From contig CAWIGG010000004.1 in the NCBI GenBank assembly GCA_963835575.1, forward strand, positions 736,001 to 800,000: a stretch of DNA of 64,000 nucleotides. Direction: 5' to 3'. The notes under the pieces were generated by a model, which ran no database searches, was not told where the DNA came from, and saw only the letters and a program-made list of their open reading frames with translations. Shown here piece after piece: positions 1,223 to 57,669 of this stretch. Every line of letters begins with the position of its first letter. The stretch's first letter is position 1. The position numbers and the translations under genes were made by a program. The DNA is from an uncultured Spirochaetota bacterium. Lineage in GTDB: Bacteria > Spirochaetota > Brevinematia > Brevinematales > JAOACQ01.

Positions 1223-1386
1223 GGGCAGTTCCAAAAACCTTAAGTTTTTAGGAACTGCCCCGGTTATAAAAACTTTTTGGTTAATGTAAATGACGCTACT
1301 GCGTGGAGTTTGCAAAGCAAACTTAGCAGTTGCATGAATCAAAACAATGTCGGCAGTTCTAAAAATATGAGTTTTTAGAACTGCCC
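1223..1386 (+). repeat. Structured intergenic repeat, copy A (MITE/REPIN-like)
   Basis: Hairpins GGGCAGTTCCAAAAAC..GTTTTTAGGAACTGCCC (1223-1260) and GGCAGTTCTAAAAA..TTTTTAGAACTGCC (1352-1385) flank a core shared with 57553-57655; ATAA on both sides (1219-1222, 1387-1390). Confidence 0.85.
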
Positions 1387-4922: not shown

Positions 4923-4967
4923 TATAGGGCAGTTTCAAAAACTTTAAGTTTTTGAAACTGCCCTATA
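4923..4967. repeat. Solo perfect palindrome of the GGGCAGTT..AACTGCCC hairpin family
   Basis: 22-bp arms TATAGGGCAGTTTCAAAAACTT / AAGTTTTTGAAACTGCCCTATA around 1 nt; same family as the hairpins at 1223, 1352 and 11550. Confidence 0.85.
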
Positions 4968-9702: not shown

Positions 9703-11397
9703 ATGTACGACGATTTACTTGAAAATGAGGATGTGAACCGGCTTATAAAATACGGAAAAGAAAAAGGCATGCTGACTTATGATGAAATTCTGGACCGGCT
9801 GCCTGAATCGGTGATCACATCCCCGGAAGGCATTGATAACGTCCTTCGCTTACTGGAAGAAAATGAAGTGAATATAGCGGACGCGTTTCTTGAGGAATTT
9901 GATGAGTTTATTGAAGACTCATATGACGAAATCGATTCAATCATAATAGAAAGCGAGGACGAGCAGTCCGATAATCCGCTCAGGATCTATTTGAAGAAAA
10001 TAGGCAAGATCCCTCTTTTGGCCCAGCCGCAGGAAATTGAAATTGCTAAAAAAATCGAGGAAGGCCAGCTCAAGATCAACAGTTCCGTCTATGACGCGGG
10101 ATTTCTTGTGCCTGAAATCAATGAGATTATTGAGGACATACTGAAAGGAAAAGGCAAGCTTTATAATTTCTTTAATCTTCCTAAAATCTATAATATCACG
10201 GCAAAAGAAAGAAAGGAAAGAATGAAGATCATCGCCAAAGTAGCCAGCTATTTGAAGGATTTTTATAATGAAATGGAAAGAATAGATAAAGAATGGGAAA
10301 ACTCGGATGAAAAAGAAAAAGCGGAACTGAAGGAAGAAATCAGAAAAATCAGAAGAAAATTTGTTGACGATATCAAGACAATCGATATTAACCAGAAAAT
10401 CCTCCTGAATGCCGCTGAAAAATTGATTTATGTGGCGGAAGAGCTGGAAAAGACCCAGGAATATTTCAAGAAAGTAGAAGAGGTGAATAATCTCAGTGTT
10501 ACCGAGATATATAAACTTTCAAGACAGAACCAGGGTAATGAGTCATTAAAGAGTCTGGTCCAGGGCCTTAAGGAAAAAGAAGCGAAAATAAAAGAAATCG
10601 GGAATAATTACAAAGCTTCAATAAAGGAACTGATCCACTGGTCCCATGAGATCCGGGAAGGTAAGAATATTGTCGAGGAAAGGAAGAAAGAGCTGGTGCA
10701 GGCGAATCTCCGTCTTGTTGTCAGTATCGGAAAGCGTTATATCAACAGGGGCGTTCATCTTTTCGACCTGATCCAGGAAGGAAATATCGGTCTCATCCGA
10801 GCCGTGGAAAAATTTGAGTACAGGAAGGGATATAAGTTTTCCACGTACGCCACCTGGTGGATCCGTCAGGCCATAACCAGGTCGATTTCAGAACAGTCCA
10901 GGACCATCCGTGTCCCGATCCATATGATAGAGCAGATCAACAAGGTCAAAAAAGCCGAAATGGACCTCACTCAGGACCTGGGCAGGCTTCCTTCCGTCGA
11001 GGAAATATCCACCCGCGTGGGATGGGGAATTTCAAAGGTTAAAAATATCAAGAGCGTGGCAAATGACCCTGTATCGCTTGAAACCCCTGTGGGAAGGGAC
11101 GAGGATTCGGCGCTGGGTGATTTTATTGAGGACATCAAGGCGGCAAGCCCGCTGAATTCAACGATGAATAATATGCTCCGGGAAAAACTGGGCGAGATTA
11201 TCGACCAGCTGCCGCTCCGGGAGCAAAAAGTCCTGAGGATGCGTTTCGGATTGGAAGACGGTTATTCACATACATTGGAAGAAGTGGGATATCTCTTCCA
11301 GGTTACAAGGGAAAGGATCCGCCAGATTGAGGCGAAGGCGCTGAGAAAGCTTAGAAATCCGAAACGCGTGAAAGAATTAATGGATTTTATTGATTAG
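9703..11397 (+). CDS. rpoD: Primary RNA polymerase sigma factor
   Basis: Region 1.1, ANLRLVVSI, DLIQEGNIGL, KFSTYATWWIRQAI, TLEEVG..VTRERIRQIE; downstream of dnaG. Confidence 0.97.
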   Translation: MYDDLLENEDVNRLIKYGKEKGMLTYDEILDRLPESVITSPEGIDNVLRLLEENEVNIADAFLEEFDEFIEDSYDEIDSIIIESEDEQSDNPLRIYLKKIGKIPLLAQPQEIEIAKKIEEGQLKINSSVYDAGFLVPEINEIIEDILKGKGKLYNFFNLPKIYNITAKERKERMKIIAKVASYLKDFYNEMERIDKEWENSDEKEKAELKEEIRKIRRKFVDDIKTIDINQKILLNAAEKLIYVAEELEKTQEYFKKVEEVNNLSVTEIYKLSRQNQGNESLKSLVQGLKEKEAKIKEIGNNYKASIKELIHWSHEIREGKNIVEERKKELVQANLRLVVSIGKRYINRGVHLFDLIQEGNIGLIRAVEKFEYRKGYKFSTYATWWIRQAITRSISEQSRTIRVPIHMIEQINKVKKAEMDLTQDLGRLPSVEEISTRVGWGISKVKNIKSVANDPVSLETPVGRDEDSALGDFIEDIKAASPLNSTMNNMLREKLGEIIDQLPLREQKVLRMRFGLEDGYSHTLEEVGYLFQVTRERIRQIEAKALRKLRNPKRVKELMDFID

Positions 11398-11584
11398 AGG
11401 ACAAATCCAAAAACAAAATGTTTTTGGATTTGTCCCGATTGGAATAAACTTTTTGGGAATACAAAAGATGCTGTTCCTCACCATTTTGTCAGGGCAGCTC
11501 CAGTGGAACTCAGAAAATGGTGAGGGACTGCATGATTCGGAACAACATCGGCAGTTCCAAAAAATATGAGTTTTTAGAACTGCC
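11398..11584 (+). repeat. Structured intergenic repeat, copy B (apical module replaced)
   Basis: 5' hairpin GGACAAATCCAAAAAC..GTTTTTGGATTTGTCC (11399-11435); 3' hairpin 11550-11584 nearly identical to 1352-1385; central CCTCACCATTTT..AAAATGGTGAGG; TTAG on both sides. Confidence 0.8.
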
Positions 11585-11602
11585 TTAGAAATTAAAATTT
11601 TA

Positions 11603-17331: not shown

Positions 17332-19097
17332 GGCCCTGCTGAAAAAATTCAAACACAAGCATAGGGGATATTCCGGCAAATTTTCAACCGCACAAGGAAA
17401 AAGATTAAGAAATCAAAGGCCATGTCGGCGGCAGCCTTCGATTTATCAGCCAAATAGCCCCGATATCTCTTGAAATTAATCCCGATTCCCCTTAAAAGCA
17501 TGCGGGTTTTGACTTTTACCAGACCACGGAACAAAATCCTGCCGCTCAAATACTTTGGTTTCAATAAACTCATCAATCCTTCTACGGCAGGGCGTAGTCC
17601 CATCAGAAATTTTCCTGCATCCATACATATCAATTCCAAAAATTCATCCATCCATTCCCTTTTGGCGTCTATTACCAGCCGACTTTGCTTCTTGCCGACA
17701 CAGGCCAGACAATTTTCTTTCTTATCGCAGGCGGCACATTTTTTTACATCAAAATTCAATACCACGGAACCATCTTCATTTTCAATAATGCTATTCGGGA
17801 TTTCTCCCGCCGGACACATCCCATATTTGCCGGTTTTTGGGTCTGTATACTCAGAAAGTTTCGCTTTGTTTTTTATCCCTTCCAGATCGACGCCGCGTAT
17901 CGCGCTCATTACCAGTTGAACGTCTTCGCCGCTCTCATTCCGAAGGTCTTCAGAATTATAACCGCCATCGCTTATCGCTGTTTCAATATTCGTTTCCTTT
18001 TTTAAATTAGATAGTTGCCTGCGGAATAAATCCCCATCGTCAGCATTATTTGATGCGGTTTCTATGCTGGTAATCACCTGCATCGGATTTTGAGGGTCAC
18101 AGGTTTCAACCGCGTTCACCTTATACCCGACATACTGTTTTCCCCGCTTCTCCCGGTAGGTCGCGTCTTCGTCCACCGGCGACTGCATCGATGAGGCTTT
18201 GATTTCCCGCGGCAGCTTCAGCGTCACCTTGCCTTCTTTTTCTATCCGGCATTGTTCCCGCAAAAGTCTCATTGCCTGCCGGAAACTCTTTTGTTTCCTG
18301 ACTTTATTGTGAAACACGTTCTCTGTAATCAGCCCGAATATTTCCTCGCCAATTTCCACCGTTTTCGATTCGTAATTCTCCTTTTTCAGTCGATAACTGA
18401 ATCCGTCCTCATTTTGTTTTAGAAAATCCTTACATCTTTCACTTAAGGAAAATCCAGCATTGGAAACATCTTCCGCCATATTGGACAACACTTTATGAAA
18501 CAGCATAACCCGATTCAGCCGCTTGATATTGGCCCCAATCATTACAGAATCTGTCCTCTGCAGTCCGGTTTTGATCCCGACCTCTCCAATTAAAAGATCC
18601 CGAAACTCATCAAATATAACGTCAAAAAGCCCGTCCTGATTCTCCGCCACAGCGGCACGAAAATAGTATAACGTCCTGATCGACATCTGCTGCGCGTTGA
18701 TGTCTTCCAATCCCAGCGCGTATCGAAACGATAAATCATATCGATACCGCTCAAACAACTGTTCATCGGTCAGAGAGAATAGCTCTTTCATGATTTCCAG
18801 CCCGGCTAATATGTTGACCGGGAAATTACTCCTACCAAGTTTTGGGTCATATAGTGGAGCAAACTTCCGCTCATTTATTTTTGAGAAAACTTTCTGGTAA
18901 AAAAGCCCGGCCCAGCTTTCATTTAAACTTTCTCTCATTTCCTGGTTCATTTCATATCTTACCGGATATAAATCCTGTTCTATATGTCTCTGATTCAGCT
19001 TGAACATTTTGACCTCTCTCTGATTCATGTGCATATATTATAACGAGTTATGCAACTTTTGTACATGAATCGGTAGGATTGTTTTTGCAGTAGGGCC
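17332..19097 (-). mobile_element. Complete insertion sequence (IS1182/IS5-like), 1766 bp
   Basis: Terminal IRs GGCCCTGCTGAAAAAA / GGCCCTACTGCAAAAA (14 of 16 match); 6-bp direct repeat ATTTAT at 17326-17331 and 19098-19103. Confidence 0.9.
17349..19007 (-). CDS. DDE transposase
   Basis: N-terminal GR.NFPV..L.GL...K...LTDEQL..FRYALG; RTDS, DEDATYR.K, GYK, SDGGY, R.AVEG; Cys-rich insertion. Confidence 0.9.
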   Translation of the reverse strand: MFKLNQRHIEQDLYPVRYEMNQEMRESLNESWAGLFYQKVFSKINERKFAPLYDPKLGRSNFPVNILAGLEIMKELFSLTDEQLFERYRYDLSFRYALGLEDINAQQMSIRTLYYFRAAVAENQDGLFDVIFDEFRDLLIGEVGIKTGLQRTDSVMIGANIKRLNRVMLFHKVLSNMAEDVSNAGFSLSERCKDFLKQNEDGFSYRLKKENYESKTVEIGEEIFGLITENVFHNKVRKQKSFRQAMRLLREQCRIEKEGKVTLKLPREIKASSMQSPVDEDATYREKRGKQYVGYKVNAVETCDPQNPMQVITSIETASNNADDGDLFRRQLSNLKKETNIETAISDGGYNSEDLRNESGEDVQLVMSAIRGVDLEGIKNKAKLSEYTDPKTGKYGMCPAGEIPNSIIENEDGSVVLNFDVKKCAACDKKENCLACVGKKQSRLVIDAKREWMDEFLELICMDAGKFLMGLRPAVEGLMSLLKPKYLSGRILFRGLVKVKTRMLLRGIGINFKRYRGYLADKSKAAADMAFDFLIFFLVRLKICRNIPYACV

Positions 19098-35036: not shown

Positions 35037-35107
35037 AAACCCCCGCCCCTCACCTTTTTGTCCGGCCGCACCGGTGAAGCTGACAAAAAGGTGAGGGGCG
35101 GGGGTTT
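35037..35107. terminator. 26-bp perfect-stem hairpin between convergent genes, containing the CCCTCACC..GGTGAGGG module
   Basis: AAACCCCCGCCCCTCACCTTTTTGTC (35037-35062) / GACAAAAAGGTGAGGGGCGGGGGTTT (35082-35107). Confidence 0.75.
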
Positions 35108-47553: not shown

Positions 47554-47598
47554 TCAATGGATCATATCGTCAAGATAATCATCATTTATCCGGGTCAT
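47554..47598 (-). pseudogene. Stub of a HEPN/DUF86 toxin gene
   Basis: ATGA overlap with the MNT stop; reads MTRINDDYLDDMIH then TGA TAA, resembling DUF86 N-termini. Confidence 0.5.
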
Positions 47599-47888
47599 AA
47601 AAACAGTACTTCTCGCATTATTTCCTTACCGATCCTGGGTTTCAGCGAGTTTTTCATGACCAGGTCTACTTTTAATCCTAATTTATCGGAGAGTTTATTC
47701 TCAAGACCGGCAAATTCAAGCAAGGTCGGCGTTTTATTAAAATCCACCAGAATATCGAGATCGCTTTTTTCCATTGCCTCGCCCCTGATATAAGAACCGA
47801 AGATGCCGATTTCATTAATATAATATTCTTTTTTTAAATCAGGTATTTCTTTCATCAATTCCGCTTTTATTTCTGATAAATTTTTCAT
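47595..47888 (-). CDS. Minimal nucleotidyltransferase (MNT) antitoxin
   Basis: IGIFGSYIRGE...SDLDILVDF, KVDLV. Confidence 0.92.
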   Translation of the reverse strand: MKNLSEIKAELMKEIPDLKKEYYINEIGIFGSYIRGEAMEKSDLDILVDFNKTPTLLEFAGLENKLSDKLGLKVDLVMKNSLKPRIGKEIMREVLFL

Positions 47889-48180: not shown

Positions 48181-48537
48181 GTTCACTTTTCTTTTGGCAG
48201 ACGTCCCAAAAGAAAAGTGAACCGAAAAGAAAAAGACTTTGAGGCCATTTCCATACGGAGCGATCGGATAGTATGGAGGTGTGTCATCCGGTTTTTATTC
48301 AAAACAATTCTTATTTAATAGCCTCCTTATATCGCTGTCCTTGCCCAGCACCACTTTGAGGACAGGCAATCAAAGTGGTGCTGGGTGTGGCTTTATGCGG
48401 CGGTTGCGGCATCCCTTCGATGCTCCCTCACCATTTTGTTGGTTTAATATTCTAAGCTTATCAAAATGGTGAGGGATTACTCAGGGCAAGCCTTGCCGCA
48501 AGCATTTAACTCTTTTCTATTATTATAAAATGGCCTC
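48181..48537. repeat. Composite multi-hairpin non-coding element next to the RAYT gene
   Basis: Stems 48181-48197/48206-48222, 48241-48250/48528-48537, 48344-48359/48370-48385, 48404-48411/48494-48501, 48424-48438/48462-48476. Confidence 0.75.
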
Positions 48538-48586: not shown

Positions 48587-49108
48587 TTAATTTTCCTCAT
48601 CAATATTCCAATTTGACGGATTGTTTAAAATATATTCCCGGTGATGATGCAAATCCTTTTCATCCCTGATGATATGATCGTGATATCTTGATTGCCAATA
48701 AAATTCGATTTTATTCAATACCGCCCATTTTTTCACGCCGATTTTGAATCCCCGGATTATTGAGGGAATGTTCATAGATTGCGGCCCGAATTTTCCGTTT
48801 GCGGTTGGTTTTTTTAATTGTAGAGACGCAAAATTTTGCGTCTCTACAATTATAATCCCATGTAAATGGTCCGGCATGACGACATATTCATCCAATACCG
48901 CAAACGGAAAATGTGCCGGGATTTCCCGCCAACATTTGTCCGCGTTTTTCCCCGTTTCCGATAATACCATTTTTCCATCCTTTATATGCCCGAAATACGG
49001 TTCACGGTTTTTTGTGCAGACCGTCAGGAAATAAATACCGGCCTTGGAATAATCCCATCCTTTCAACCGGGCGGACTCGACGCGGTATTTGTTATTGAAT
49101 AAGGTCAT
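48587..49108 (-). CDS. REP-associated tyrosine transposase-like HUH (Y1) protein
   Basis: RLKGWDYS..G.YFLTVCT, VVMPDHLHGII (HUH), WQSRYHDHIIR, EYILNNP. Confidence 0.92.
   Translation of the reverse strand: MTLFNNKYRVESARLKGWDYSKAGIYFLTVCTKNREPYFGHIKDGKMVLSETGKNADKCWREIPAHFPFAVLDEYVVMPDHLHGIIIVETQNFASLQLKKPTANGKFGPQSMNIPSIIRGFKIGVKKWAVLNKIEFYWQSRYHDHIIRDEKDLHHHREYILNNPSNWNIDEEN
48815..48852. repeat. Perfect 38-bp GTAG-type palindrome inside the RAYT coding sequence
   Basis: TAATTGTAGAGACGCAAAA-TTTTGCGTCTCTACAATTA, encoding VETQNFASLQ. Confidence 0.9.
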
Positions 49109-52100
49109 TTATCTCGTCCTTCAACAATCGCGATCTCTTCCTCCGTCAGCCCGTACAGCTCATAAACCATCCGGTCGATCTGCCTATCTGTCTTTTCTAT
49201 CTCTGCTTTCAATCCTGCCGTCTCCTTCCGGTGTTCCTCAAAATACTCCTTCCACTCGTCCTGGTCTTTAAGTGAGAGCCGGATTTTCTGCTTACGCAGT
49301 TCGTCCAGAAAGGCGGCGAAATCCATTGTGTAGAAATCTTCAAGATTCTGCGTGATTTTAATGGAACGGAAGTTGTCCCGAAGGCGCTGAAGAAAACGAT
49401 TAATAATTGAATGCAATCTTTTATGCATTTCTATCAATGAATTAGCTTTTTCAACATAAGGTTTTTGCTGAGATTTATTTGCTTTGAATATTGGTAATTT
49501 TCTTAATTCACTTAATGTAGTTTGTCTAAAATCATCTTTTGTTGCTATTGTAGATTGGTTTAAGTATAAGAAAGATAAAAGTTTGCTATTTATTAATGCC
49601 AATAAATAAAATATATGATAATTTTCATCTTTAATAATAAATGGATTCAAATCCTTTTTGACAATTAAATCTTGATTATAATAACAAGCCATAATTCTAT
49701 TTTGACGACTTATTATTCGTCTAATTAGGATTCTTTCATTTTTAATATAATATTTAATAATTGATTTATATGATCCCATATCAGTATGATTTATATCTTC
49801 AATAGCTATACTATATCTATAAACTTGCCCTTTCACTAAATATGGATATATATTCAGCCCTTTTTCATTAGTAACATGAAACATGTTACCAGCTAGCCCT
49901 TGAGTAGAATCAGTAATTTCTCCGAAGGAAATAAATTTACTATTTTTTGTTTTTGCTAAAATAATGTTTACATTCTTTTGAAGAATAATTTTGTAGTCTT
50001 CCCTATTTATAAAATTCAATTCTATTGTTTCATAATTTATCTTTTCTAGAGTATTAATATCTTTATTTTTTGGATATTGATAAATTTCATAATAATCCCG
50101 TGTTTTTGTTTTTCCAATTACATAGATACCTGTATCAACATATGCATCTTCAAAAACATTAAAAGGCAAATTTATTATTTTCTTTAATTGATGATTTGAG
50201 AGTAAATATTTTCTTAAATTCAAATAGTTTTCTCCAGTCTGCCATGTAATAGAAGAGATATAACCTAAATTTCCAAATTCGTGTAATAATTCAAGACCTT
50301 TTAAAATAAAAACAATGGAAGAATCATATTTTCTTTCTAAGAATATAAATTTATTTTTATAATAATCCTTTTCGTTATTATTCATTGATTCAATAGGAAT
50401 ATACGGCGGGTTTCCAATCACCACATCAAAGCCGCCTTCCGGGAATTCTTTTTCCCACTTAAAAGCCTTTTCCCCGGCGACGGCAGGGTCGTCTATGAGG
50501 GAGTTTCCGCACTTGATATTATTGTCGAGGTTGTCGAGCTTCTTCCCTTTATGGGCCGTCTTGAGCCAGAGCGAAAGCTTCGTGATCTCGACCGATTCGG
50601 AATTGATGTCCACACCGTAGAGGTTATTCTGAAGAATGCTTTTGTCGATTTCCTCGGGTTTGAAAAGGACCGTTTCACCTTTCTCATGAAGTTTCTTCAT
50701 CTCGTTATGGACCCGCTGATGCTCTTTCCAGAGGTAGTTGAAAGCGGCAATGAGAAACGCGCCGGAGCCGCACGCCGGGTCAAGAATTCTGATTTTCTTG
50801 AGGTAGTTCTCACGGTAATCCGTCAGAATAATTTCCTCACGGTTTTTAAGCTTGTCTTTTGGTGAATATTTTTTATCAAGCTCATCGAGTTTTTCCTTAA
50901 GCCACGCGCCGACCGTATTTTCAACGATATAGCGGGTGATATATTCAGGCGTGTAATAGACGCCTTCCTTCTTCCGCTTTGAGGGTGTTCCTTTTTTTCC
51001 GGCGGTTTCCTCACTTTTTTCAAAACTCGAGCGCATTTCCTCCAGGTCGGAAATGGACTGTTCGAAGATATGCCCCAGTATGTTGACATTCAGTTCGTTT
51101 TCATCGCCGAAGTCGTATTGCCTGCCGATGCCGGATATTTCCTCGAATAAAAAATTGCGGATTTTAAGGGCATCGAGATTGGTGTCTTCTTTAAACAGGC
51201 CGCCGTCGTAGCCATGCGGGATATCGAAATTTCCACCCCTGTCGATGGCGCGGAACAGGTTCTTGACCTTTTCCCAGATGGTAAAATCATTCCCCGAATA
51301 GTAAGCGCTCTTTTTTTCATCTTCAATAACGCGGGAAAGGATGTTGGACGGCAGTAAAAGGTTTCTTGAATCCTCGCAGAACCAGCAGAAGATGATCCTG
51401 TCGAGGAACTTCTGGACCAATGACAATAATTGATGTTTATTGTTATCAAATTCCCGGTTATTTTTCAATAATTCCGAGAATATTTTAGACCGGAGTTCTT
51501 TATAATGACTATAAAATTCTTTCTGGACTTTCTGCTCTTCCAGCCCCTGTCTGGACAGAATATCTTCGGAATAGGATTTCCCATCCCGGGCTAAAAGGTG
51601 TTCCGCTTTCAGTATATTGATAAATTTAAGCGTTTCGGTTTCTTCCGAAAGCGGCCTGTGCCGGAGCGTCTGATCATCAGGCACATTAAAATAAAACGTT
51701 TCGCATCTGGCTTTACCGGCCTGCTTAAAGTAAAGCCGGATTTCATTGAAATTTGTGACGATGCCCCATTTCGCTTCCGTATAATATTCCAGATAGTTCC
51801 AGCATTGATCAACCGGCGAATAACGGTCTTTCCGGCTGGAAGGCTTATCCAGGTCGTCGGAAGACTGGTCCTTAAATTCAACCAGGACCTGGGCTTTCTC
51901 GGCTTCCTTTGTAAAATAACCCAGAGCCATATCGGCTGAGCCGGAGCCTCCCCCGGCCCCGCCGCCTTTAACGGCAAATTCGCTTGTCAGCGTATAATTG
52001 AGGGAGTCTTTCCCTTTTCCATGATAACCGAGGATCTTTTCAAAAACGACTTCAATAAATTGATTGGCGTCACCTGTTTCTTTATCAATACCTTTGGTGA

Positions 52101-52245
52101 ATGTCCGGCAGTTTTTCTGCCAGTTTGAGATAAGGGATTTAATTTCTTTTAATCTATCGCCTGAAAGTCCCAGTTCATTCCTAAAATAGTCATTTTTTTT
52201 AAAGAAAGTTTCTGTAAACAACCTGTCCATTAATATTAACTCCAT
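49105..52245 (-). CDS. Type IIG (Eco57I-like) fused restriction endonuclease / N6-adenine methyltransferase
   Basis: N-terminal ADM..VEFK nuclease motif, GVYYTP, ILDPACGSGAFL, FDVVIGNPPY, TaqI_C-like target-recognition region. Confidence 0.92.
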   Translation of the reverse strand: MELILMDRLFTETFFKKNDYFRNELGLSGDRLKEIKSLISNWQKNCRTFTKGIDKETGDANQFIEVVFEKILGYHGKGKDSLNYTLTSEFAVKGGGAGGGSGSADMALGYFTKEAEKAQVLVEFKDQSSDDLDKPSSRKDRYSPVDQCWNYLEYYTEAKWGIVTNFNEIRLYFKQAGKARCETFYFNVPDDQTLRHRPLSEETETLKFINILKAEHLLARDGKSYSEDILSRQGLEEQKVQKEFYSHYKELRSKIFSELLKNNREFDNNKHQLLSLVQKFLDRIIFCWFCEDSRNLLLPSNILSRVIEDEKKSAYYSGNDFTIWEKVKNLFRAIDRGGNFDIPHGYDGGLFKEDTNLDALKIRNFLFEEISGIGRQYDFGDENELNVNILGHIFEQSISDLEEMRSSFEKSEETAGKKGTPSKRKKEGVYYTPEYITRYIVENTVGAWLKEKLDELDKKYSPKDKLKNREEIILTDYRENYLKKIRILDPACGSGAFLIAAFNYLWKEHQRVHNEMKKLHEKGETVLFKPEEIDKSILQNNLYGVDINSESVEITKLSLWLKTAHKGKKLDNLDNNIKCGNSLIDDPAVAGEKAFKWEKEFPEGGFDVVIGNPPYIPIESMNNNEKDYYKNKFIFLERKYDSSIVFILKGLELLHEFGNLGYISSITWQTGENYLNLRKYLLSNHQLKKIINLPFNVFEDAYVDTGIYVIGKTKTRDYYEIYQYPKNKDINTLEKINYETIELNFINREDYKIILQKNVNIILAKTKNSKFISFGEITDSTQGLAGNMFHVTNEKGLNIYPYLVKGQVYRYSIAIEDINHTDMGSYKSIIKYYIKNERILIRRIISRQNRIMACYYNQDLIVKKDLNPFIIKDENYHIFYLLALINSKLLSFLYLNQSTIATKDDFRQTTLSELRKLPIFKANKSQQKPYVEKANSLIEMHKRLHSIINRFLQRLRDNFRSIKITQNLEDFYTMDFAAFLDELRKQKIRLSLKDQDEWKEYFEEHRKETAGLKAEIEKTDRQIDRMVYELYGLTEEEIAIVEGRDK

Positions 52246-53229: not shown

Positions 53230-53361
53230 ATTTTTCCTAAAACCTTCGGTTTTAGGAAAAATTACGGTTATAAAAGACTTTTGTTTTAAAAAGTCCGTAA
53301 ACACGTGGGCAACACGAAGTGTTGCTGGTGTTTACTTGACTCTACAAATAGTTTTTGACCG
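53230..53361 (+). repeat. Structured intergenic repeat, copy C (diverged sequence, conserved structure)
   Basis: Hairpin 53230-53262, then CGGTTATAAAA, then GTAAACAC-GTGG-GCAACAC-GAA-GTGTTGC-TG-GTGTTTAC. Confidence 0.78.
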
Positions 53362-56286: not shown

Positions 56287-57507
56287 ATGTTTTTTTTGAA
56301 ACTGGGGTTCAGGAATCTGATGAAAAACAGAAGAAGGACGCTTTTAACAATGTCGGCGGTCATTATCGGAATGGCGGCTTTGATCCTGGCGAACGGCTTT
56401 GTCAGATATTCCTTGTGGGGGCTCCGCGAATCGACGATCCAGGGCGGCGTCGGTCATTTTCAGATTTATAAAAAAGGCTTTAAGGAATTCGGGGAAGAAA
56501 AGCCGTATGATTATCTCATCACCGGCTATAAAAAAATCATGCGCGAACTGGCCGGGATACCGGGAATAAAATTGACTGCGCCCCGGCTGAATTTCCAGGG
56601 CATGATCTTCAGCGCTGAAAAAAGCACAGTCATTATGGGAATTTCGGGCCTTGATGAGGAAGAAAAGAAATTGATGTCGTTTTCAACACTGGAGAACAGC
56701 CGCTTTATTTCAGATGATAAACCATACGATATCGTGATAGGAGCGGGAGCGGCCAGGAACATCTCGGCGAAAATCGGGGACAGCGGTACCATCATGGTCG
56801 CGATGAAAGACGGGAGCATCAATGCGATTGATTTCAATATAGCCGGGATCATGCACAGCCAGCTCTCAGAGATGGAAAATGTTTACGCTCTGGCCGGCCT
56901 GGGAACGATACAGAAGCTCTTGAATACTCCGGATTCTATCGACACCCTGGCCGTTCTGCTTCAAAAAACGGAAGACATGGAAAAAATAGAGCCGCGGATC
57001 AGGGCCGTCTGTGATAAATACGGCCTGGAGTACCGGCGATGGGACCAGCTTGTTCCAATGTACGCCAGCGCGAAAGAGTTCTACGAATCGTCCATGCGTG
57101 TCGCGCTTATTGTCATATTCGCTATTGTAGTTCTTGCAGTGACGAACACGATGCTCATGGTCGTTTTTGAAAGGGTCCGGGAGATAGGGACGATCAGGTC
57201 CCTGGGGACAACGCGCTCAATGGTCCTGCAGCTGTTTATCTCTGAAAGCTTTATCCTGGGAGCGGCCGGCTCATTTTTCGGGATTATAGCAGGCATTATC
57301 CTGGCGCAAACTATCAACGGCCTGGGAGGGATCCCTCTTCCACCGCCTCCGGGCAATGCCCGTTCGTATCATGGCATGTTCAGCCTGGATTTCGCCGCTA
57401 TGCTCATGTATTATTTTATGTTTATTCTTGTTTCCGTAATAGCCTCGATCTATCCGGCATGGAAAGCCGCGCGGCTATCCATAGCGGACGCGCTCAGATG
57501 GATTTGA
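56287..57507 (+). CDS. FtsX/LolC/E-like ABC permease (paralogue of the previous gene)
   Basis: ERVREIGTIRSLG, YPA.KAARL; shares GHFQ.YKKGF, APRL.F with 55026..56255. Confidence 0.9.
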   Translation: MFFLKLGFRNLMKNRRRTLLTMSAVIIGMAALILANGFVRYSLWGLRESTIQGGVGHFQIYKKGFKEFGEEKPYDYLITGYKKIMRELAGIPGIKLTAPRLNFQGMIFSAEKSTVIMGISGLDEEEKKLMSFSTLENSRFISDDKPYDIVIGAGAARNISAKIGDSGTIMVAMKDGSINAIDFNIAGIMHSQLSEMENVYALAGLGTIQKLLNTPDSIDTLAVLLQKTEDMEKIEPRIRAVCDKYGLEYRRWDQLVPMYASAKEFYESSMRVALIVIFAIVVLAVTNTMLMVVFERVREIGTIRSLGTTRSMVLQLFISESFILGAAGSFFGIIAGIILAQTINGLGGIPLPPPPGNARSYHGMFSLDFAAMLMYYFMFILVSVIASIYPAWKAARLSIADALRWI

Positions 57508-57655
57508 GGTACAGATAGCCAAAAAACTTAAGGTTTTTGGCTATCTGTACCTGGTTATAAAGTATTTTTGTTTAATGAAAAAGACGCAACTGCGTGGAGT
57601 TCGCGAAGCGAACTTAGCAGCTGCAAAATTCAGAACAATGTAGTTCTAAAAATAT
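57507..57655 (+). repeat. Structured intergenic repeat, copy D
   Basis: 19-bp-arm hairpin 57507-57552; core GGTTATAAA..GACGCAACTGC-GTGG-AGTTCGC-GAA-GCGAACT-TA-GCAGCTGC..AACAATGT aligns with 1262-1350. Confidence 0.85.
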
Positions 57656-57669
57656 TCAGGAGGAAAAAT

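Follow-up and report, generated by a model that had tools for sequence, protein, structure and literature searches.

A window of 64,000 nucleotides from an uncultured member of the Spirochaetota (C4:736001-800000 of a 4.39-Mb, 94%-complete assembly, G000) contains four short non-coding elements of common layout, here called A to D. These raise the question of whether they are mobile DNA or a structured RNA family and, if they are mobile, which enzyme moves them. An earlier note, made from the letters of the window, had read them as non-autonomous mobile elements or structured RNAs under selection for shape, with either a RAYT nuclease or a DDE transposase that leaves 4-bp duplications as the possible mobiliser. 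Our analysis indicates that A-D are copies of a non-coding MITE with IS5-type ends and that an IS5-family DDE transposase, acting in trans, is the likely mover, a reading to which we assign a probability of roughly 0.85. The MITE family is new but of a well-known kind, and its hairpins show unusually exact mirrored changes.

Elements of the window

The coordinates, shared layout and linker first described for A-D are borne out by the sequence (Table 1). All four are real members of the family, to which the solo hairpin at 4927, overlooked before, is added as a fifth. In A, HP1 is followed by the linker GGTTATAAA, the rod and the 3' hairpin, and the ATAA/ATAA flanks noted earlier are present. 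The inner 7-bp stem of the apex is perfect (7/7) in A, C and D; in A it is formed by 1307-1313/1317-1323 around an AAA loop and is preceded by a GTGG bulge (1303-1306). The outer stem, described as 8 bp long, is complete in C only, with 7/8 pairs in A (T.T) and D (A.C). The duplication reported around B as TTAG/TTAG exists but is one base off, the terminal-repeat register giving TAGA/TAGA at 11395-11398 and 11586-11589. In C, neither a 3' hairpin nor a target duplication was seen.

Table 1. Positions of the elements, their parts and associated features in the window.
Feature	Position	Strand	Remarks
Left target-site duplication of A, ATAA	1219..1222	.	sequence
Element A, complete young MITE, 164 bp	1223..1386	+	terminal inverted repeats GGGCAGTTCYAAAAAC; 100% identical second copy at C4:940175-940338; site empty in 4/4 congeners
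A 5' hairpin (HP1), 38 nt: left terminal repeat and inner inverted copy	1223..1260	+	
A core apex	1295..1333	+	outer stem 1295-1302/1326-1333, 7/8 paired
A 3' hairpin (HP2): inner inverted copy and right terminal repeat	1352..1386	+	terminator-like on minus strand
Right target-site duplication of A, ATAA	1387..1390	.	sequence
Solo 37-bp hairpin, two back-to-back terminal repeats, TATA/TATA duplication	4927..4963	.	fold z = -9.5
Element B, older copy directly after rpoD-like stop	11399..11585	+	HP1 diverged with mirrored changes; site empty in 4/4 congeners
Secondary ~51-bp palindromic module CCCTCACC..GGTGAGGG, in the place of the apex in B	11475..11526	.	61 copies genome-wide
RAYT-like gene, 173 aa, judged not to be the mobiliser of the A-D family	48587..49108	-	NF047646 68.3 bits, cut-off 80
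GTAG-footed REP palindrome, in frame inside the RAYT-like gene, unrelated to A-D	48820..48847	.	20 copies genome-wide
Element C, old diverged copy: HP1 and rod	53230..53361	+	in training set of covariance model
Element D, old copy: HP1 lengthened in both arms, HP2 half lost	57507..57655	+	short spacer in likely orthologues

As for neighbouring genes, an anaerobic ribonucleotide reductase gene lies downstream of A, B is bordered by those of a sigma-70 factor and an AdoMet decarboxylase, and D by those of an FtsX-type permease and a LolA-like protein. An open frame from a TTG inside D (57568-57669) runs into the LolA-like gene and is a possible, if unsupported, N-terminal extension of it.

Ends, target duplications and empty sites

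A 16-bp inverted repeat is found at both ends of the element, the two ends of A agreeing at 15 of 16 positions. An inverted copy of the terminal repeat lies on its inner side, and this would allow each end to form a hairpin. Among 45 exact-ended elements, 38 are flanked by a 4-bp duplication (flank permutation: mean 6.0, maximum 15 in 10,000) and none by a duplication of 3, 5 or 6 bp. The targets are AT-rich, with TTAA in 17, ATAA in 10, TTAT in 6 and ATAT in 5 of 56 cases. Insertion probably takes place in AT-rich 4-mers of this kind (TTAA, ATAA, TTAT and others), which often contain or abut stop codons, and this may be why surviving copies are intergenic.

Empty orthologous sites, which the earlier note had suggested looking for, were found for both A and B. 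As judged by eye, the spacer before nrdD measures about 30-40 nt in all four congeners against 196 here, and that between rpoD and speD about 40-55 nt against 261. The permease-LolA spacer holding D is about 20-35 nt in the likely orthologues and 162 here, an orthology that is uncertain given the presence of paralogues. An orthologue of the gene downstream of C was not found in the four congeners with the query used. Every MITE feature examined is thus present, i.e. inverted repeats, a duplication of fixed length, short multicopy elements without a transposase, and empty sites. The ends and the duplications uphold the view of A-D as non-autonomous elements of a DDE transposase making 4-bp duplications, and allow it to be narrowed to the IS5 family.

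Size and range of the family

A search for further copies, also suggested earlier, showed the family to be far larger than chance would allow: the core HMM matched 71 loci in the genome and none in the reversed genome. Use of A-D as blastn queries gave 105 merged loci, and a scan for the end motif gave 116 terminal-repeat clusters, of which 17 measure 150-190 bp and 29 measure 191-215 bp. A further 42 do not exceed 45 bp, many of these being lone hairpins that belong to longer, diverged copies; the rest have other lengths. The elements measure 126-205 bp, are multicopy and encode no transposase. The 24 intact 204-bp copies have a mean identity of 94.7%, some being identical, which indicates that the family moved recently.

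Outside this genome, the covariance model matched none of 24 relatives (119 candidates scored per genome) and the apex pattern none of 400 other genomes; blastn detected end-hairpin matches only, in 3 of 40 relatives, and A had no blastn match among plasmids. Within the genomes searched, the full element thus appears confined to its source genome. The latter also harbours a sister family of about 120 bp whose ends are related; its members (C2:726917-727037, C4:316756-316876, C6:280069-280188 and others) have a single terminal hairpin and an AT-rich body unlike that of the MITE. It is very rich in IS elements, with some 230 repeated stretches of more than 500 bp (about 378 kb in total) and several families of 20-34 near-identical copies.

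The likely mobiliser

The genome contains an IS5-family element of 1283-1284 bp in 22 copies, 18 of which have 4-bp AT-rich duplications, with targets of the same spectrum as those of the MITE. Its transposase matches NF033581 at 269 bits (cut-off 140), and its nearest named relatives are IS1168/IS1169 (about 49% identity). The ends of A and of this resident element are alike at 13-14 of 16 bases. Those of IS5 relatives in a member of the same order (L206) and in a metagenome (L128) equal the ends of A at 16/16, and copies in a congener (G004) have a left end 15/16 like that of A. A survey of related transposases covered 104 loci, copies from the source genome and duplicates counted, of which 85 gave an end pair. 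Many right ends of these relatives, the resident one included, fold back as hairpins, so that hairpin ends are likely to be a habit of the family.

A long-range end search of the 94%-complete assembly found no autonomous element with exactly the ends of the MITE, and returned only the near-matching IS5 element and three chance pairings. The mover would therefore be a lost relative or else the resident IS5, which would have to tolerate 2-3 mismatches. Cross-mobilisation by the resident element, with 2-3 of 16 end positions differing, is what we infer from the ends; its transposase, or that of a lost closer relative, would bind the outer repeats. The interior of the MITE matched none of the IS5 interiors at the loci surveyed. 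An exact 16-mer scan of genome contigs gave at least 110 loci, and among the matches listed none encodes a relative of the resident IS5 transposase. The end motif also bounds unrelated elements of 110-238 bp with 4-bp duplications in several bacterial phyla (L019, L053, L062, L064, L068, L095, L103, L108, L118).

In a genome with more than 100 matches to DDE domains of many families, and with an IS1182-like gene in the window itself, the MITE might derive from another DDE family such as IS1182 or IS4. The ends of 11 other repeated IS families, whose end coordinates are approximate, match those of A at best at 7-11 of 16 positions, and the NF033581 element is the only one to pair MITE-type ends with a 4-bp duplication, so that such a derivation is scarcely credible. 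The gene in question (17349-19034, minus strand) encodes a 561-aa transposase matching NF033551 at 146 bits, below the cut-off of 270, and has about 12 copies in the genome. Mobilisation by a RAYT (HUH) nuclease, with GTGG at the foot of the apex as its guide, was proposed earlier on account of the RAYT-like gene of the window and of the GTGG found, in A, C and D, ahead of the inner stem; GNA loops in 8 of 18 aligned copies, and a copy of the apex module of B at 48425-48475, 112 nt downstream of the RAYT-like gene, also speak for it. Across the family, however, the GTGG foot is not constant: of the 71 cores, only 11 have GTGG as the four bases ahead of the inner stem, against 32 with ATAG, 4 with GAGG and 18 with others, and 6 are unassigned. 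HUH transposases typically make no 4-bp duplications, unlike the elements studied here. Moreover, the tetranucleotide is internal here; published REPs have a conserved tag at their terminus and lie beside RAYT genes (PMC3733652). Four of the five RAYT-like loci, that of the window included, carry a separate GTAG REP, none of whose 20 copies lies inside a terminal-repeat cluster, and no such cluster occurs within 1.5 kb of any of the five loci. A role of the RAYT in moving A-D is accordingly very unlikely, and an IS5-type transposase is retained as the likely mobiliser.

The GTAG REP at 48820-48847 is likely the cognate REP of the RAYT-like gene, whose product has no Pfam match and an NCBIfam match below cut-off. 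The RAYT could be linked to the secondary 51-bp module, or that module could have a separate history. An Eco57I/TaqI-like restriction-modification gene (49105-52245, minus strand) overlaps the start of the RAYT-like gene, and a small nucleotidyltransferase gene (47595-47888, minus strand) lies downstream of it.

Modular structure

The secondary palindrome seen in B offers an explanation for the modular look of the elements. By a rough regular-expression search, 15 of the 61 copies of CCCTCACC..GGTGAGGG lie in loops of terminal hairpins and 8, including that of B, in core rods; the other 38, left unassigned, are mostly at unrelated sites, with a few missed family cores. No parent element for the module was identified. 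Its middle is variable, it also occurs in the apices of unrelated terminator-like hairpins, and the window holds further copies at 35037-35107 and, as mentioned, near the RAYT-like gene. Other short palindromes and IS1182-type ends are likewise found inside hairpin loops. Small palindromes such as the 51-bp module would thus land in hairpin loops, and secondary insertion of this kind is likely to have produced the modular appearance. Three-level nesting, with IS1182-type ends inside a small palindrome inside an IS5-type hairpin loop, was observed at C6:202064-202226, C2:1670995-1671374 and C2:60361-60657 of G000 and in L024/L081; the nested ends belong to a short derivative in G000 and to a full IS in L024/L081.

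Given the inverted copy on the inner side of the terminal repeat, solo hairpins of 35-38 bp are likely to result from use of the inner end or from deletion between directly repeated arms. Solo hairpins with intact duplications, e.g. at C4:428293 and at 4927 in the window, fit both routes.

Position and orientation relative to genes

The earlier note had placed the start of all four elements within 0-5 nt of a stop codon. This holds for A, which begins 5 nt after a TAA; D and its stop codon share 1 nt. As a trait of the family the proximity fails, for the 5' end lies within 10 nt of a stop in only 16 of 71 copies, and the four copies of the window are a sample from this stop-adjacent tail. Older copies are stop-adjacent more often: among diverged or truncated copies, 10 of 23 have the 5' hairpin no more than 11 nt from a stop, as do 5 of the 36 canonical copies (Fisher p = 0.015; null 3.9%). 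In spacers between co-directional genes, elements point with transcription in a ratio of 31:12 (p = 0.005), against 8:8 for the IS5 control. Both p values are uncorrected for multiple looks, and the gene calls behind them are simple in-house ones (3,636 genes, 82.5% coding) in which small genes may be missed.

Covariation and its cause

Covariation, another check put forward in the earlier note, is pronounced. In 18 copies picked by hand from about 70, nested-insert copies and near-duplicates being left out, 88.3% of cells were paired against 78.7% after shuffling, 29 of 44 pairs had changed on both sides, none of 500 shuffles reached the observed covariation and slid controls gave 30-47%, figures that do not represent a probability since the structure was fitted to these same, mutually related copies. 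Counted in fixed register over 23 distinct HP1 arm pairs (1 skipped), the changes from consensus comprised 30 mirrored ones and 16 unpaired ones (2 G.T, 10 A.C, 4 other). The core stems held 223 Watson-Crick, 4 G.T, 4 A.C and 1 other pair, two mostly unpaired columns left out. On the forward strand of the element G.T is thus no commoner than A.C, and the G-U tolerance of a transcribed strand was not seen. In addition, D and the copy at C3:164223 have multi-base insertions in both arms.

The lack of any preference for G.T pairs, together with the insertions in both arms, points to copying between arms at the DNA level as the main cause of the mirrored changes. Template switching yields mirrored changes in one step (PMC8794818), and compensatory changes have been reported for the mobile repeat bcr1 (PMC3184786). 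Copying of one arm onto the other by template switching would most likely generate the mirrored changes of the stems; some old copies may now function as mRNA hairpins behind stop codons, and selection on these may have contributed.

Could A-D instead be a cis-regulatory or small RNA family under selection on RNA shape, with mobility incidental? The covarying pairs, the sense bias and the enrichment of old copies at stop codons would all fit such a family. Against it, Rfam at gathering thresholds has no match over the window, no homologue was detected in the relatives and genomes searched, the orthologous sites are empty, and the excess of G-U pairs is absent. On its own, the core of A and of D folds only weakly (z about -2.2), the predicted fold of A differs from the proposed rod, and the pairs counted belong to a structure derived from the same related sequences. 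The conserved structured RNA put forward at the outset is therefore a weak candidate, and we regard it as improbable. Selection for shape may still act, although the covariation can be accounted for without it.

On the preferred reading of A-D as MITEs, the orientation bias and the stop-codon enrichment of old copies still show pure neutrality to be insufficient. Old copies may plausibly be kept by selection as mRNA hairpins. More speculatively, we tentatively propose that old copies with the 5' hairpin head-on to stops in operons (rpoD-speD, permease-LolA) may now serve the host as mRNA-stabilising or processing hairpins, whose arms are re-perfected by template switching.

Comparison with known elements

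No description of this MITE family was found in searches of openly readable papers, the end motif as text included. Among autonomous elements, IS5-family IS of the NF033581 type (IS1168/IS1169 of Bacteroides, IS1194) share the 16-bp terminal-repeat pattern, the 4-bp AT-rich duplications and the intergenic dispersal. The MITE differs from them by the lack of a transposase, by both ends being full hairpins and by a rod core unmatched in the IS5 loci examined.

Several MITEs are comparable. MITEPsy1 of Pseudomonas syringae (100 nt, 6 copies) has been shown to transpose, makes a 4-nt duplication (CTAG or YTAA), and has ends close to those of the IS5-family element ISPsy2, its presumed mobiliser (PMC3189936). 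It resembles the window MITE in being short and non-coding, in its 4-nt duplication and in ends near those of an IS5-family element, whereas the present family numbers about 70 copies of 126-205 bp, in which hairpin ends and nested modules occur, and its mobility is predicted only. BrickBuilt and other IS5-type MITEs of Porphyromonas gingivalis are likewise modular and restricted to a species, with long stem-loops, IS5-like ends and no Rfam match; the end sequence of BrickBuilt is different, and it contains a 23-nt minisatellite (PMC4596501). Like the window MITE, Nezha shows empty and filled sites, and its best-matching parent IS is found only in another species, a precedent for a lost or absent mover here; bcr1 of Bacillus, a mobile repeat of about 155 bp, is similar in the compensatory changes that keep its stems. 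The ends of both differ from ours, and bcr1 has 5-bp repeats and shown transcription (PMC3184786). GTAG REPs and REPIN-RAYT systems (PMC3733652) share with A-D palindromic repeats near gene ends, and a RAYT-like gene is present in the window; the tetranucleotide of the MITE, however, varies and lies internally, and the RAYT is accompanied by a separate REP of its own.

As a family, these elements are ordinary selfish DNA, useful for annotation. They also call for caution, in that strong covariation among paralogous repeats can stem from arm copying at the DNA level rather than from a new structured RNA. If old copies are indeed re-perfected as proposed, perfect covariation within one genome would arise without the usual G-U intermediates, and the copies would be a ready-made series in which template-switch rates could be measured and the domestication of a transposon end followed. 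Should the co-option signal hold, the family would provide a clean example of transposon ends turned into operon mRNA hairpins.
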